DNA of 64,000 nucleotides from Escherichia coli. GTDB taxonomy: Bacteria > Pseudomonadota > Gammaproteobacteria > Enterobacterales > Enterobacteriaceae. The position numbers and the translations under genes are program-made. Of the stretch, positions 21,159 through 51,037 are shown in pieces. Each line of letters starts with the position of its first letter. Position 1 is the stretch's first letter. The notes under the pieces are model-generated. The model did no database searches. It saw only the letters and a program-made list of their open reading frames with translations, and was not told the DNA's origin. The stretch lies in the NCBI RefSeq assembly GCF_044324785.1, contig NZ_CP172127.1; one strand, 5' to 3'.

Positions 21159-21409
21159 TTACCCTGAACTGACGATACAACAAAGGCGCAACGCTTTTGA
21201 GATAAAGGATCGATGCTTTCACTGCTTTTACCCTCTACCATTAGGCTAATTGCGACGAGAAAGGGACGACCTATGAATACTAACGTTTTTCGACTGCTCC
21301 TGCTGGGAAGCCTGTTCAGCCTTAGCGCCTGTGTGCAGCAAAGCGAAGTGCGACAGATGAAACACAGCGTCAGCACGCTGAACCAGGAGATGACGCAACT
21401 CATTGACAT

Positions 21410-21434
21410 CCTCCACGCCCTGAAGGACGTGGAT
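21410..21434 (+). repeat. Subterminal hairpin of the IS (left copy of 14-nt direct repeat cgccctgaaggacg)
   Basis: Read directly; forms ccacgccc-tgaa-ggacgtgg stem-loop with one mismatch. Confidence 0.6.
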
Positions 21435-21445
21435 CCCTGCTACGT

Positions 21446-22653
21446 TCAGGCTGTCGCCTGAATCATTTCGGTGGGTTCCTGCTTCAACGGGCGGCCTGAC
21501 TGCACCATCCCTCCACAGGCAAGAACGGCGTGCCCCGCCGCTAAAATGTTACGAGCGCCATTTACATCGGCGTTCGCTGTATATCCACATACCTGGCATC
21601 TGAATTTACTTTGTGACAGGCGATTTTCTTTCGCTGTATGACCACAGCACGTGCAACGCTGGCTTGTGTACGCTGGCGAAACAGCAAGCACCTGACCGCC
21701 ACGCCAGAGCTGCTTGTACTCAAGCTGGCGGCGCATTTCATACCAGCCCTGATCCAGTATCGAACGGTTTAAACCTGATTTGCCCGGACATTGCGCCCCG
21801 GCTGGCTGACCGTACCCGCTGCTGACTTTGACATGTTGCTGACCTTCAAATCCTCAATGACTATCATTGCGTGGTTTTTGCTGACGGTCGTTGTGACTTT
21901 GTGAAGGTAGTCCCTGCGGATATTTGCGATACGGGAATGCAGTCGCTGTATTTTGCGTTTCTGCTTCTGCCAGTTGTTGCTGAATTTGACCTTGCGGCTT
22001 AACTGTCGCTGAAGTCTCGCCAGCGTCTTCTGGTTTTTCTGAAAACTGTTTACAGGCTCAAAGACTGTGCCATCTGACAGCGTGGCGAGTTTAGCCACGC
22101 CAGCATCCAGCCCGACCATTGATGCTGAAGGGTGAACCGGAGTTGATACTTCACTTTCTGTCTGAATACTGATGTACCACTTACCGCTGGACTGGCTGAC
22201 CGTGACATTTTTCACAACTCCCGTGACCTGACGGCTGTTCCGGTAGCGCATCCAGCCAAGTTTCGGCAGAAAAATACGGCTGTTTTCCTGATCGAGCTTA
22301 ACGCCCTGCGGGTAGCGGAATGCATCATTCTGTCCCCGCTTTTTGAATCGGGGAAAAGCAGCCCGCTTCCGGAAGAAGTTTTTGTAAGCCCGCTCAAGGT
22401 CTTTCAGTGACTGTTGCAATGGCTGTGAGGGCGAATCTTTAAGCCATTGCGTTTCAGTGGCGTTTTTCCACTCAACCAGCCAGGAAGCCATTTTCCCGTA
22501 AGGGATGTATTTATTACCGGCCTCATGATTCTCATTCTGAAGCGCCAGAGCACGATTGAAAACGAAACGACATGCGCCTGCGAAGCGCCTCATTTCACGC
22601 TCCTGTTGACCACCGGGTCTTAACTGGAATTTAAATGCCTGTAGTCGTTTCAC
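21446..22653 (-). pseudogene. tnpB: tnpB (OrfB, RNA-guided nuclease family) with -1 frameshift near 21780
   Basis: ORF track 21769..22653 (294 aa) and 21446..21736 (96 aa, zinc-finger CTCCGH...CQVCG) are contiguous TnpB sequence in different frames; plus-strand TTT run at 21779-21781 is one base short of the reading ...NVRAKSGLNRSILDQGW. Confidence 0.8.
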
Positions 22654-22675
22654 AGGTCAAATTATATTTTGGTCT

Positions 22676-23187
22676 GTGAAAAAAGAAACCGATATCCGGC
22701 GTGGAAGGCATTGTGTTTTCCTGATGCATGTTCACCTGGTCTTTGTCCCAAATACCGACGCCAGATTTTTGACCATGACGCGACAGAAAAACTACGCACT
22801 TACTTTTCAAATGTATGTGCTGATTTTGAAGCTGAACTGGTTGAAATGGATGGCGAACCAGATCACGTCCATTTGTTAATTAACTATCCTCCCAAACTGG
22901 CGATATCCAGTCTGGTAAACAGCCTCAAGGGCGTATCGAGTAGGTTACTGCGACGAGATCGACCAGATATTGCAGTCAGGTATTACGACAAAGGCGTTTT
23001 GTGGAGTCCTGGCTATTTTGTCAGTAGCTGCGGAGGTGCGCCAATATCCGTCATCCGCCAATACATTGAACAACAGCAAACACCTGGTCAGGTGAAAAAC
23101 CGCGCCTTATATCCCCGCCCTGAAGGACGGGGTTTTACGGCGCACCGGATAAAGAAACAGTCAAAATCACTCAGCAAAACAGGCTGA
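22676..23187 (+). pseudogene. tnpA: tnpA (IS200-type HUH/Y1 transposase) with frameshift near 22748-22752; 3' extent uncertain
   Basis: ORF track 22676..22879 carries ...HVHLVFVP, ORF track 22669..23187 carries KYRRQIF...DHVHLL...WSPGYFVSSCGG...YIEQQ; a single base is missing in the ccc/aaa homopolymer. Frame runs past the likely IS end. Confidence 0.7.
23112..23131 (+). repeat. Subterminal hairpin of the IS (right copy of the 14-nt direct repeat), followed by TTTT
   Basis: ccccgccc-tgaa-ggacgggg then tttt, read directly. Confidence 0.6.
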
Positions 23188-23856
23188 ATGCAAAATCCAG
23201 CAGTGGGGTTTACCTTCTGCCTGGAGCGAAAACACCGGCAAGACTGGAAAGCCAGATCGGTACTTTACGTATGTCGCTGGTGAATATTACGCCTGATACA
23301 GATGGCACCACCCTGACGCTACGTATTGAGGGCGAGTCGAATGATCCCTTGCCCGCATTCAGCGGAACTGTTGAATATGGGCAAATTCAGGGAACAATAG
23401 ACAACTTTCAGGAAATCAATGTGCAGAATCAATTGATTAACGCCCCTGCCAGCGTCCTCGCCCCCAGCGATGTTGATATTCCGTTACAGTTAAAGGGGAT
23501 TTCTGTGGATCAATTAGGCTTTGTACGTATCCACGACATTCAACCTGTTATGCATTAAACGTATTGCGGGGCAATTTTGTGCGTCCCGCAACATCTTTTC
23601 CCGTCATTTTGTTACTCCGCTTACATCACCTGGATTGATAGTAAAAGTTTGCAACAAGGGTGAAAGTCAGTACAATCCCCGCCCGAATGTGTGTAAACGT
23701 GAACGCAATCGATTACGTAAATGATAGAACTGTGAAACGAAACATATTTTTGTGAGCAATGATTTTTATAATAGGCTCCTCTGTATACGAAATATTTAGA
23801 AACGCAATTTGCGCCTTTTTCACTCCCGCAAGGGATTTTCAAACAGTGGCATACAT

Positions 23857-24741
23857 ATGAAAAAAACATTACTGGCAGCCGGTGCGGTACTGGCGCTCTC
23901 TTCGTCTTTTACTGTCAACGCAGCTGAAAACGACAAACCGCAGTATCTTTCCGACTGGTGGCACCAGAGCGTTAACGTTGTCGGAAGCTATCACACCCGT
24001 TTCGGACCGCAGATCCGCAACGATACCTACCTTGAGTACGAAGCATTCGCTAAAAAAGACTGGTTCGACTTCTATGGTTATGCGGATGCGCCGGTATTCT
24101 TCGGCGGTAACTCCGATGCAAAAGGTATCTGGAACCACGGTTCTCCGCTGTTTATGGAAATCGAACCACGTTTCTCCATCGACAAGCTGACCAATACTGA
24201 CCTTAGCTTTGGTCCGTTCAAAGAGTGGTACTTCGCGAACAACTACATTTACGACATGGGTCGTAATAAAGATGGTCGCCAGAGCACCTGGTACATGGGT
24301 CTGGGTACCGATATCGATACTGGCCTGCCGATGAGCCTGTCCATGAACGTCTATGCGAAATACCAGTGGCAGAACTATGGCGCAGCGAATGAAAACGAGT
24401 GGGACGGTTACCGTTTCAAAATTAAATACTTTGTGCCGATTACCGATCTGTGGGGCGGTCAGCTGAGCTACATCGGCTTCACCAACTTCGACTGGGGTTC
24501 CGATTTAGGGGATGACAGCGGTAATGCAATCAACGGTATTAAGACCCGTACCAATAACTCTATCGCTTCCAGCCATATTCTGGCTCTGAACTACGATCAC
24601 TGGCACTACTCTGTCGTAGCTCGTTACTGGCACGACGGTGGTCAGTGGAACGACGATGCAGAACTGAACTTCGGCAACGGCAACTTCAACGTTCGCTCTA
24701 CCGGCTGGGGTGGTTACCTGGTAGTAGGTTACAACTTCTAA
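23857..24741 (+). CDS. tsx: Nucleoside-specific outer-membrane channel Tsx
   Basis: ORF track frame trimmed to [22 protein letters not shown] (signal peptide); 294 aa; C-terminal ...VVGYNF. Confidence 0.93.
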
Positions 24742-48296: not shown

Positions 48297-48752
48297 TTAT
48301 TCGCTACGGCGGGCAATAATTTTTAGCGCAGCAATATTATGCGTTTTACGCCGTAACTGATCTAATCGTCTCATCCCTATTCGCCTGTCAGCAGCACGCA
48401 GAATATTCACTAACCCCCATTTATCGCTGGTAAATTGTTTTGTTAACAGCTCCGCTTTTGGAGTATCAATATATTCACGCAATAAATCTGAAATTGAACA
48501 AATATCCGTCAGGTATGGATACCAGCAAGTTTCACCGTGAAAATTACGCACTCCACCGTTACCTGCAATAAAGTCTTTCGGGTAATCCCAGATCACGTTT
48601 TTATCCAACGTGATCCAATAACGAGGTAAATCGGTGCTTCCACCATTTTGGCTGCGCATGGGATAACGGGTACAGTGAATTTGCAGGTTGATCGTTGGCG
48701 TCAGTATGTCATAGATCTCCCGTTGTAACTTGCTCCATGGGCGTTGTGTCAT
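48297..48752 (-). CDS. Accessory gene: hypothetical 151-aa protein, translationally coupled to the upstream 762-aa gene
   Basis: ORF track 151 aa; ATG overlaps upstream stop (ATGA at 48749-48752); SD GAGGA in the upstream gene's last codons; may correspond to the short K-12 remnant ykiA (recollection, unverified). Confidence 0.7.
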   Translation of the reverse strand: MTQRPWSKLQREIYDILTPTINLQIHCTRYPMRSQNGGSTDLPRYWITLDKNVIWDYPKDFIAGNGGVRNFHGETCWYPYLTDICSISDLLREYIDTPKAELLTKQFTSDKWGLVNILRAADRRIGMRRLDQLRRKTHNIAALKIIARRSE

Positions 48753-51037
48753 TGTTTTTCCTCAAGCCGGTGACGCGCTTCACTGCGAATTTTCCGCGTT
48801 GCCCCTGTTTTCACTAAATCACGTAACAGCGAAAGATCGGGTTGATCGACAAATAAGAGTAATGATGGATCCTCTTTTAACCACGTCGTTTTCACATCGG
48901 CAGCCAACTGTGGATTATTAATAACCAACGCCCGATCCTGAGGCTCAGTCAATGTCGTTAACAAAGACGCCGGGGTATGTGCGTTGCGCAATGCCGTTTG
49001 GCGCAAATGATCATTGCGACTTTGCAGCAATGCACGCCACCATTCATCATCTGATTTATCTTTTATCGTAGCCAGTTCCGCAAAAATATCGCTATCCTCA
49101 CTGTTCCAGCGGTGTAGTCCTCTTTCACTTTGCCTACGGGTGCTATTTTTCATACTGACAACAGCCAGCGCCCAGTCAGAGTTGAAGCGATACTGTTGAT
49201 CGAGTTTGTTGATAATTCCGGAAGGTAAATCTTTATTATCAAATAATTGGTTACGCATTCGATAGCGGTATTCAGCGGGTAAATCAACCAGTAAATCAAT
49301 GGCATTATTTAACATCTCTTCGTCAACAACACCATTATCAATCAGCGCCAGCTGTACTTCATAGACTTGCTCTTGATCTTCTTGCCGTTTGCTCATCATT
49401 AAATTTAATGTGCGTTGCCATAATTGTTTTTTATATTCCAGCGGCAACAATTTATCGCGTGCCAGCTCATCCCAGACGGAGGGAATATCATGCTGAGTGA
49501 GTAGATAACTAATCACTTCCTTCGACGTCAGATAACGCGCACCTTCGCGTAAATTGTGCACATCTTCCTTTGCCAGAGACAGTTGACGCGACTCAGGTAA
49601 CGCTATCAATAACGCCTTCACGATATTTTTATTTTCTTTATTATCCAGATACATTTGTTCTGCGATACGTTCAATATCCTCTGTACGCAGGGTTGCTGAC
49701 AGTTGAGTAATTTTTAGTTCAGTAAGCGTCCGGGCTAATGCTTCACGAACTTTGAGTGATTTATCTTTACTCAACATCACAGCTTGTTGTGCGATTAAAT
49801 CTGCTCCGGTAATTCTTTCGCGTAACTCCGGGTCTTCACTATTTATCAACTCATCGACCACTGCAGTCGGAACCAGCCAGGCGTAATCGTAATGGCTAAT
49901 TAATGTCTTGCGCACACTGAGAAAAGGGCTATGACTTAATGCCGCAACAATATCAGGAGAAAGATTATCCTGTCTGGCCTGCTCCAGCTGTACGCTCTCG
50001 ACGGGTACAGACATTAATTTTTTATTCACTTCGGCGGAAATGTTACTGTTTTTAACCAGCCCTCTGGCAACAGCTTCATCTTTAATTAATTCATCGGTAA
50101 GCAAATGCATCTGTTGAGCGGGCCAGGACTGCGCCATCGATTCACGCGTCTGGTCATCGGGGTGCTGTAGCAGTTGCAGCATAACGGCGGTTGACAAACT
50201 TTCTATATGAGTCAGAAAACGTGCCACCAGTGGATCTTCATGCTTTATTTTATCCGCAGGGAAATTATCGAGTTTCCCCGTTTCAATCCATTTTAATTTC
50301 TCATTAATTTCAGGAGCGGCTTTATCTCGAAAAAGAGGTAAACCCTGAACGATATTGTCTGCGACGCTGTCATAGTCAGGATACGCATTGGAAATATTAT
50401 CGGTTTCGATTTCACTATGATCATAAAGATTAGGCGTCACCAGTGAATAGGCTTTTTGAATATTCTCATCCCAGTTATATTCTTCACCACTTCCATCTTC
50501 ATTGATATAAAATTCAGCTTTAATGACTTCAAATTGCGTTGCTTTATCGGAAACAATAATGCCTCGCGCACTAATTCCCTTCATCACTTCAAAGTTATGA
50601 TCATTGTAATCAGCATAAACTAAACCTTTCGCTGTCATCTGTCCTTTGACATACGCGAAATCATGATTAATAAAGTTATCGACAATAACATTACCTAATA
50701 CAATCAGATGACCATTACCTGACAGATAATCATCATAATCGCCGGAAATCGTTAAATTACCGTTCACCACCAGTTTATTTTGATTGCTGAAGTTAGCGGG
50801 TAATGATAGGTCACCATTATGATAATACCAGCGGATATTATCTTTTAGCATATAAGCAGCTTCCATACTATCGTCGGTTGCCGCTTTAACCACGTTGCGC
50901 TCATCTGCCGTCATAAGATGAAAGTCAGAGGTGATAAGGTCCTCGCTACTGATCCACTCTGTGGCACATGCATTGCCAGTCATAAAAAACACGACCATAC
51001 AGATGACCAATATTTTAATTCTATTCATAATCTTCAC
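48749..51037 (-). CDS. Accessory gene: hypothetical 762-aa exported protein (Sec-type signal peptide, Asn/Gly-rich beta-rich N-domain, long alpha-helical repeat C-domain)
   Basis: ORF track 762 aa; first codon is GTG, ATG at 51028 gives MNRIKILVICMVVFFMTGNACA|TEW; AT-rich relative to neighbours; not present in the K-12 rdgC–ppnP interval as recalled. Confidence 0.75.
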   Translation of the reverse strand: MKIMNRIKILVICMVVFFMTGNACATEWISSEDLITSDFHLMTADERNVVKAATDDSMEAAYMLKDNIRWYYHNGDLSLPANFSNQNKLVVNGNLTISGDYDDYLSGNGHLIVLGNVIVDNFINHDFAYVKGQMTAKGLVYADYNDHNFEVMKGISARGIIVSDKATQFEVIKAEFYINEDGSGEEYNWDENIQKAYSLVTPNLYDHSEIETDNISNAYPDYDSVADNIVQGLPLFRDKAAPEINEKLKWIETGKLDNFPADKIKHEDPLVARFLTHIESLSTAVMLQLLQHPDDQTRESMAQSWPAQQMHLLTDELIKDEAVARGLVKNSNISAEVNKKLMSVPVESVQLEQARQDNLSPDIVAALSHSPFLSVRKTLISHYDYAWLVPTAVVDELINSEDPELRERITGADLIAQQAVMLSKDKSLKVREALARTLTELKITQLSATLRTEDIERIAEQMYLDNKENKNIVKALLIALPESRQLSLAKEDVHNLREGARYLTSKEVISYLLTQHDIPSVWDELARDKLLPLEYKKQLWQRTLNLMMSKRQEDQEQVYEVQLALIDNGVVDEEMLNNAIDLLVDLPAEYRYRMRNQLFDNKDLPSGIINKLDQQYRFNSDWALAVVSMKNSTRRQSERGLHRWNSEDSDIFAELATIKDKSDDEWWRALLQSRNDHLRQTALRNAHTPASLLTTLTEPQDRALVINNPQLAADVKTTWLKEDPSLLLFVDQPDLSLLRDLVKTGATRKIRSEARHRLEEKQ

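Follow-up and report, generated by a model that had tools for sequence, protein, structure and literature searches.

The element inserted in yajI in this stretch of Escherichia coli DNA (contig NZ_CP172127.1; the window hereafter, meaning the whole 64,000 nucleotides that were analyzed) is very probably IS609, a member of the IS200/IS605 family, present as a defective copy that was inherited vertically; the assignment comes from sequence comparison. The copy is 97.7 to 99.3% identical over its full length to IS609 copies. The name was taken by proxy from the O157:H7 copy, which is 97.7% identical and whose tnpA carries the RefSeq label "IS200/IS605-like element IS609 family transposase." A preliminary description, made from the letters of the window, had recognized an IS200/IS605-family element with tnpB and tnpA that splits yajI, and the alignment to K-12 and the protein family matches given below bear this out. 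It had missed that both genes are pseudogenes in the window copy and that the element is IS609, annotated at the same yajI site in 340 complete genomes.

IS609 was present in 5015 of the 5426 complete E. coli genomes searched, at a median of 2 places per genome, and its recurrent loci are ydcO (as in K-12), ytfB/tetR, yeaQ, yedK, and yajI. In the 340 genomes that have the yajI insertion in common, the annotation shows a DUF3251/YajI fragment on either side of insQ/TnpB and tnpA; the feature was known before this analysis and is annotated in hundreds of genomes. IS609 regularly appears in inventories of insertion sequences in E. coli and Shigella (PMC7373316), and no dedicated functional study of IS609 or insQ with TnpB was found in the literature searched. 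A second IS609 end was looked for within the window, and none was found. Relatives of the tnpB 3' end plus right end of IS609 (70 to 95% identical) occur in 2298 plasmid records; Klebsiella, Escherichia, and Salmonella account for most of these and Erwinia and Xylella for some, and many of the stretches lack annotation or are tagged "hypothetical protein."

The window is a core Escherichia segment (cyoA ... ribD-nrdR-yajI-tsx ... sbmA) that is collinear with K-12 from 452 to 396 kb. The region upstream of tsx had been expected to be unaffected by the insertion, and the 298 bp in front of this gene (tsx, 23857 to 24741) are indeed collinear with K-12, Tsx itself being 100% identical. No genome among the 5426 is more than 98.2% identical to the window over 20 kb, an unusually low figure for E. 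coli by which the source would seem to belong to a poorly sampled lineage; among the nearest matches and the other genomes with yajI::IS609 are YDC107, WCHEC isolates, and 28Eco12. About 2 kb between yajO and pgpA (15035 to 17023) is missing from K-12 and contains a 525-aa pentapeptide-repeat open reading frame (ORF) (15266 to 16843, plus strand) whose similarity to two type III effectors, PipB2 (E = 1e-7) and PipB (E = 9e-6), is weak and falls far short of the family cutoffs. The adjoining yajO gene (14007 to 15034) is 95.6% identical to K-12 in its DNA, compared with about 98.3% for its neighbors, and its protein is 100% identical, so that the approximately 45 DNA differences are all synonymous. 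K-12 also lacks about 1.7 kb found here between acpH and malZ (31397 to 33106), with a 501-aa ORF (31414 to 32919, minus strand) that contains an internal IAETIAKKNAK-type repeat and has no credible family match. K-12 has nothing but the ykiA pseudogene at the place that corresponds to 48297 to 51037, where the window encodes on the minus strand a 762-aa ORF with no NCBIfam match (48749 to 51037) and a 151-aa SF0329-family protein (48297 to 48752).

Junctions, ends, and target site

The alignment with K-12 yajI runs through native sequence to position 21402 and resumes at position 23149, placing the break inside codon 44, with 1746 bp of foreign DNA between the two parts. The element had been described as spanning 21400 to 23160; it does lie there, with its left end off by 3 nt and its right end by 12 nt. 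Between the start codon at 21273 and the end of the stop codon at 23558, as given by the ORF list of the window, the two parts of yajI contribute 130 and 410 nt, which add up to the 540 nt of the K-12 gene exactly, and joining them in silico restores a complete 179-aa YajI with no internal stop. Over 120 nt, the rejoined empty site matches yajI of strain Ecol_316, which is uninterrupted, at 100% identity. The halves rejoin without gain or loss of a base, and yajI::IS609 shows no target-site duplication. Comparison with an uninterrupted gene had been proposed as the means of locating the junction and the target motif, and it fixes the former at 21402/23149 and the latter as TTAT.

The two parts of yajI lie in one frame, the length of the foreign segment being a multiple of 3, as the preliminary description had noticed in estimating an insert of about 1.75 kb and a YajI of 179 aa. 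This shared frame is a coincidence, because intact IS609 copies are 1748 bp long and the window copy has lost two single nucleotides. The 5' fragment of yajI holds the signal peptide and lipobox and then reads through 19 codons of the insertion sequence before reaching a stop at 21461; IS609 has inactivated yajI in the source strain. Coordinates of the features are collected in Table 1.

Table 1. Features of the yajI::IS609 locus, in window coordinates
Feature	Position	Strand	Basis
IS609 copy, 1746 bp	21403..23148	-	Ends conserved at five loci, with flanks that differ beyond them
yajI 5' fragment (codons 1 to 43 and first base of codon 44)	21273..21402	+	K-12 alignment, ORF list, rejoined ORF
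yajI 3' fragment (last two bases of codon 44 to stop)	23149..23558	+	K-12 alignment, rejoined ORF
TTAT target/transposon-adjacent motif (ATAA on plus strand)	23149..23152	-	yajI sequence abutting IS609 left end
Left-end subterminal hairpin, CCCCGTCC-TTCA-GGGCGGGG	23113..23132	-	DNA fold; 16 nt inside left-end boundary
Right-end subterminal hairpin, CCACGTCC-TTCA-GGGCGTGG	21413..21432	-	DNA fold; 10 nt from TCAA cleavage end
tnpA pseudogene	22661..23091	+	Copy alignment; NF033573 match
tnpB (insQ) pseudogene	21446..22653	-	ORF list, profile matches, copy alignment
tnpB -1 frameshift site, T3 versus T4 (A4 to A3 on coding strand)	21779..21781		Alignment of 9 copies
Predicted omega RNA scaffold	21403..21549	-	Last ~100 nt of tnpB plus 43-nt noncoding right end
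Predicted guide, yajI flank directly 3' of right end, TGAGTTGCGTCATCTCCTGG	21383..21402	-	Right-end boundary from copies at 5 loci

The transposing (top) strand of the IS609 copy is the minus strand of the window. Read on that strand, the left end begins CCGGTGCGCC at 23148 and the right end finishes GGAGGATGTCAA at 21403, its last four bases being TCAA, which gives the layout TTAT / CCGGTGCGCC ... GGAGGATGTCAA / flank. On the plus strand, the copies at all five loci start with TTGACATCCTCC and finish with ...GGCGCACCGG, beyond which come ATAA and locus-specific sequence. The element has a subterminal hairpin near each end, both on the same strand, and no terminal inverted repeats. In the predicted folds, the minus strand of each hairpin forms an unbroken stem with a closing G-T pair, and on the plus strand the stem is interrupted at the corresponding position, a strand asymmetry of the kind expected for the IS200/IS605 family. 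The right-end hairpin (helix 7 of the RNA consensus described below) shows compensatory changes in relatives. Because tnpB is encoded by the top strand and tnpA by the other, the two genes are divergent.

IS609 entered in single-stranded style, 3' of TTAT in yajI on the minus strand of the window, with no duplication and with a site that is restorable. At each of the five loci examined, TTAT adjoins the left end. K-12 yajI has TGAT at the target position, and the mismatch between this sequence (TTGAT/TGAT) and TTAT reflects a C/A polymorphism of the gene, uninterrupted alleles with ATAA being found in other genomes. The allele of yajI that received the insertion therefore had TTAT, with Lys rather than Gln at codon 45. 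The exact 41-nt empty TTAT site occurs in 28 complete genomes, compared with the 340 in which the yajI site is occupied; these empty alleles could represent either the ancestral state or the products of precise excision.

Decay of tnpB and tnpA

The tnpB gene is represented by two ORFs in different frames, a 294-aa ORF (22653 to 21769) that makes up the N-terminal part, with the RuvC-I Asp and the RuvC-II Glu, and a 96-aa ORF (21736 to 21446) with the zinc finger and the RuvC-III Asp. The pieces match the RNA-guided TnpB family NF040570 with E values of 2e-79 and 1e-24. Of the nine copies compared, only that of the window has the deletion that separates them, which falls after residue 291, between RuvC-II and the zinc finger/RuvC-III part, and no single polypeptide of the window copy combines the three RuvC residues with the zinc finger. 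Adding back one base yields a clean 402-aa TnpB that keeps the RuvC D, E, and D residues and the four zinc-finger cysteines (CxxC...CxxC). The gene is a member of the TnpB family by descent and a pseudogene here. Across copies at several loci, tnpB has a pN/pS of about 0.3, which indicates that the gene is generally maintained and that the lesion of the window copy is recent in appearance; strain 2012C-4221, which has the same yajI insertion, encodes an intact 402-aa tnpB. A lesion of this kind, one base lost from a short homopolymer, may revert or be bypassed by slippage.

The window piece of tnpA matches NF033573 (IS200/IS605 transposase; E = 2e-37). The intact O157:H7 ortholog matches the TnpA structures of IS608 and ISDra2 (E = 1e-17 to 1e-20) and carries the HVH motif and the Tyr within RQYIEQQ; the element is thus of the kind that encodes a Y1 HUH TnpA, and its gene is a pseudogene in the window. 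The start codon has changed from ATG to ATT (22661 to 22663), one base is lost after 22747 (GTCACC to GTCCC), and the TAG stop of O157:H7 is CAG here (23089 to 23091), with the frame continuing to 23187 in yajI. A deletion within an A-run was considered for the second of these lesions and was ruled out by inspection, the change from GTCACC to GTCCC involving no homopolymer.

The IS609 copy has a mosaic structure. Between 21403 and 22187, the private frameshift is its only difference from the yajI-locus copy of 2012C-4221, whereas from 22188 to 23148, it has 21 differences from that copy and 7 from the copy at the ytfB/tetR locus of GN25, an independent assembly. The right 960 bp resembles the GN25 copy more than the other yajI-locus copy, and the ATT start and the deletion after 22747 are both shared with GN25. 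Judged by these differences, the pattern suggests gene conversion among IS609 copies at separate loci.

The predicted omega RNA and its guide

In elements of this family, the sequence flanking the right end forms part of the guide RNA (PMC10055086). The preliminary description had placed an omega RNA at 21400 to 21550 on the minus strand, reading into yajI, and the alignment of 13 related right ends (70 to 99% identical, drawn from plasmids and chromosomes of E. coli, E. albertii, Salmonella, Klebsiella, and Xylella) agrees with that placement. A conserved structure extends from the tnpB 3' end to the right-end boundary (21549 to 21403), closed by a long-range helix of ACAUUUU with AGGAUGU, and is followed by the yajI flank as the predicted guide. 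The similarity of all of the right ends is lost directly after TCAA, where the predicted guide would start. The consensus comprises 39 pairs, with 93.5% of cells paired (40 to 54% in slid controls) and compensatory change in 8 pairs (0 to 5 in slid controls and 0 of 500 shuffles), a conservation that is partly other in cause, as most of the region codes for tnpB and helix 7 doubles as the TnpA hairpin. In the window copy, this region has no private mutation, and two copies whose tnpB is intact have the identical sequence there.

The covariance-model search that had been proposed as a check for an omega RNA yielded sub-threshold matches only. In an Rfam search run in E-value mode, no family reached its gathering score, and the three matches on the minus strand, to HgcC (21513 to 21390; 23.8 versus 50 bits), RAGATH-18 (21519 to 21476; 28.1 versus 44.9 bits), and sot0042 (21573 to 21412; 17 versus 88 bits), were used for positional support only. 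HgcC and sotRNAs have been linked to tnpB 3' ends, and both have a right-end-like UUCA tetraloop (PMC4615843). The loop of the IS609 right-end hairpin is exactly UUCA. A transcript overlapping tnpB in the sense direction has been reported in E. coli K-12 data (PMC4615843), and one report describes TnpBs that are guided by RAGATH-18-derived RNAs (PMC11061315). Supplementary file 2 of another lists an IS609-like TnpB that was purified, with a target beginning TTAT supplied (PMC12781874). A promoter scan gave nothing beyond shuffled expectation; terminator-like matches exceeded expectation, and none was positioned to mark an end of the RNA.

Activity of the copy and comparison with known systems

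By family resemblance, an intact IS609 would move by a peel-and-paste mechanism. TnpA, a Y1 HUH enzyme, would bind the TTCA-loop hairpins of both ends in the top strand, with cleavage following TTAT on the left and TCAA on the right, and would reseal the donor precisely. By analogy with IS608 and ISGst, excision of the single strand would leave the donor resealed as TTAT plus TGAGTTGCG.... TnpB would load an RNA made up of the tnpB 3' end, the right end, and about 16 to 20 nt of flank and would cleave the empty site after resealing (TTAT and then TGAGTTGCGTCATCTC...), and recombination would then copy the element back.

As predicted from its genes, the window copy is incapable of moving or of defending itself alone, because tnpB is frameshifted and tnpA lacks a start codon, a continuous frame, and its stop. 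The ends, the hairpins, and the guide-RNA region are left intact and could act only if another IS609 copy, located outside the window in the same genome, supplied TnpA or TnpB. It is unlikely, though conceivable, that the dead copy makes a working guide RNA with which the TnpB of an intact IS609 cuts incoming or restored yajI alleles that bear TTAT. In that case, living relatives would keep a dead element at its locus, and the resulting breaks could drive gene conversion between IS609 copies, as suggested by the mosaic.

The idea that there is no insertion, with the intervening DNA being native yajI or a chance pair of ORFs, can be dismissed: 5084 of the 5426 genomes match at least 80% of the 120-nt rejoined site and thus have yajI uninterrupted there, the 1746 bp recurs at many other loci with the same ends, and both ORFs match their families very strongly. 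It is very improbable that the copy is still autonomous, making functional TnpA and TnpB, with its frameshifts being sequencing errors or bypassed by slippage. The tnpB lesion, a single base in a run of four A's whose repair gives the 402-aa ORF with all catalytic residues, would allow this, as would the general maintenance of the gene seen in its pN/pS, but tnpA has three separate defects, including the lost ATG and a deletion outside any homopolymer. Assembly error is an unlikely source of the frameshifts, as the window's 53 remaining K-12 core genes all have their full length and no frameshift and two of the tnpA lesions recur in the independently assembled GN25. Zero new IS609 insertions were recorded in K-12 mutation-accumulation lines, where the element never transposed (PMC5009759), which also argues against autonomy.

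Hardly any weight can be given to co-option of the remnant, in which either the truncated 294-aa TnpB and the guide RNA would serve as a TldR-like, nuclease-dead binder of DNA that is guided by RNA or transcription from the right end would alter nrdR-ribD. The truncated protein lacks only the zinc finger and RuvC-III, the region of the guide RNA is intact, and nrdR (21122 to 20673) is codirectional with tnpB about 280 bp past the right end. However, the frameshift is private among nine copies and the yajI-locus tnpB of 2012C-4221 is intact, so that the truncated TnpB shows no sign of conservation. Furthermore, the sole match to TTAT plus guide would be the empty yajI site, which is absent from the source genome, and the evidence for promoters does not rise above the shuffled background.

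Taken as a defective, vertically inherited IS609, yajI::IS609 is a lineage marker, and neither of its genes should be annotated as functional. It offers a natural example of an IS200/IS605 element in which the proteins have decayed while the ends and the guide-RNA region have been kept, and such copies would be a substrate for trans-mobilization or trans-guided retention, if those occur; beyond correct annotation, its importance is small.

The closest known systems are the other IS609 copies, such as that of O157:H7 beside ytfB and the insQ copy of K-12 beside ydcO, which are the same element, with the same ends, the same divergent layout, and TTAT at the left end; the window copy differs from them in lying in yajI, in being 1746 rather than 1748 bp long, and in having both genes inactivated. 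IS608 of Helicobacter pylori has a Y1 HUH TnpA (PDB 2a6m and 2vjv) that matches the IS609 ortholog at E = 7e-19. The two elements are also alike in their subterminal hairpins and in insertion 3' of a tetranucleotide without duplication. The right end of IS608 reportedly finishes in TCAA as well, 10 nt after its hairpin. The target of IS608 is TTAC, and its tnpA and tnpB are codirectional, whereas IS609 uses TTAT and has divergent genes, as in IS605. TnpB of ISDra2 from Deinococcus radiodurans (8bf8, 8exa, and 8h1j) aligns with residues 3 to 376 of the repaired TnpB (E = 4e-56). The RuvC D/E/D residues and the zinc-finger cysteines are conserved between them, and in both elements the guide RNA, predicted in the case of IS609, lies at the tnpB 3' end and right end. 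The motif of ISDra2 is TTGAT, compared with TTAT for IS609, and the TnpB of the window differs in being frameshifted. In ISGst of Geobacillus stearothermophilus, TnpA excises the element precisely and TnpB cuts the resealed joint, with one motif serving both proteins (PMC10055086); this model has been demonstrated experimentally for ISGst and is extended here, by analogy, to IS609 and to the window copy.
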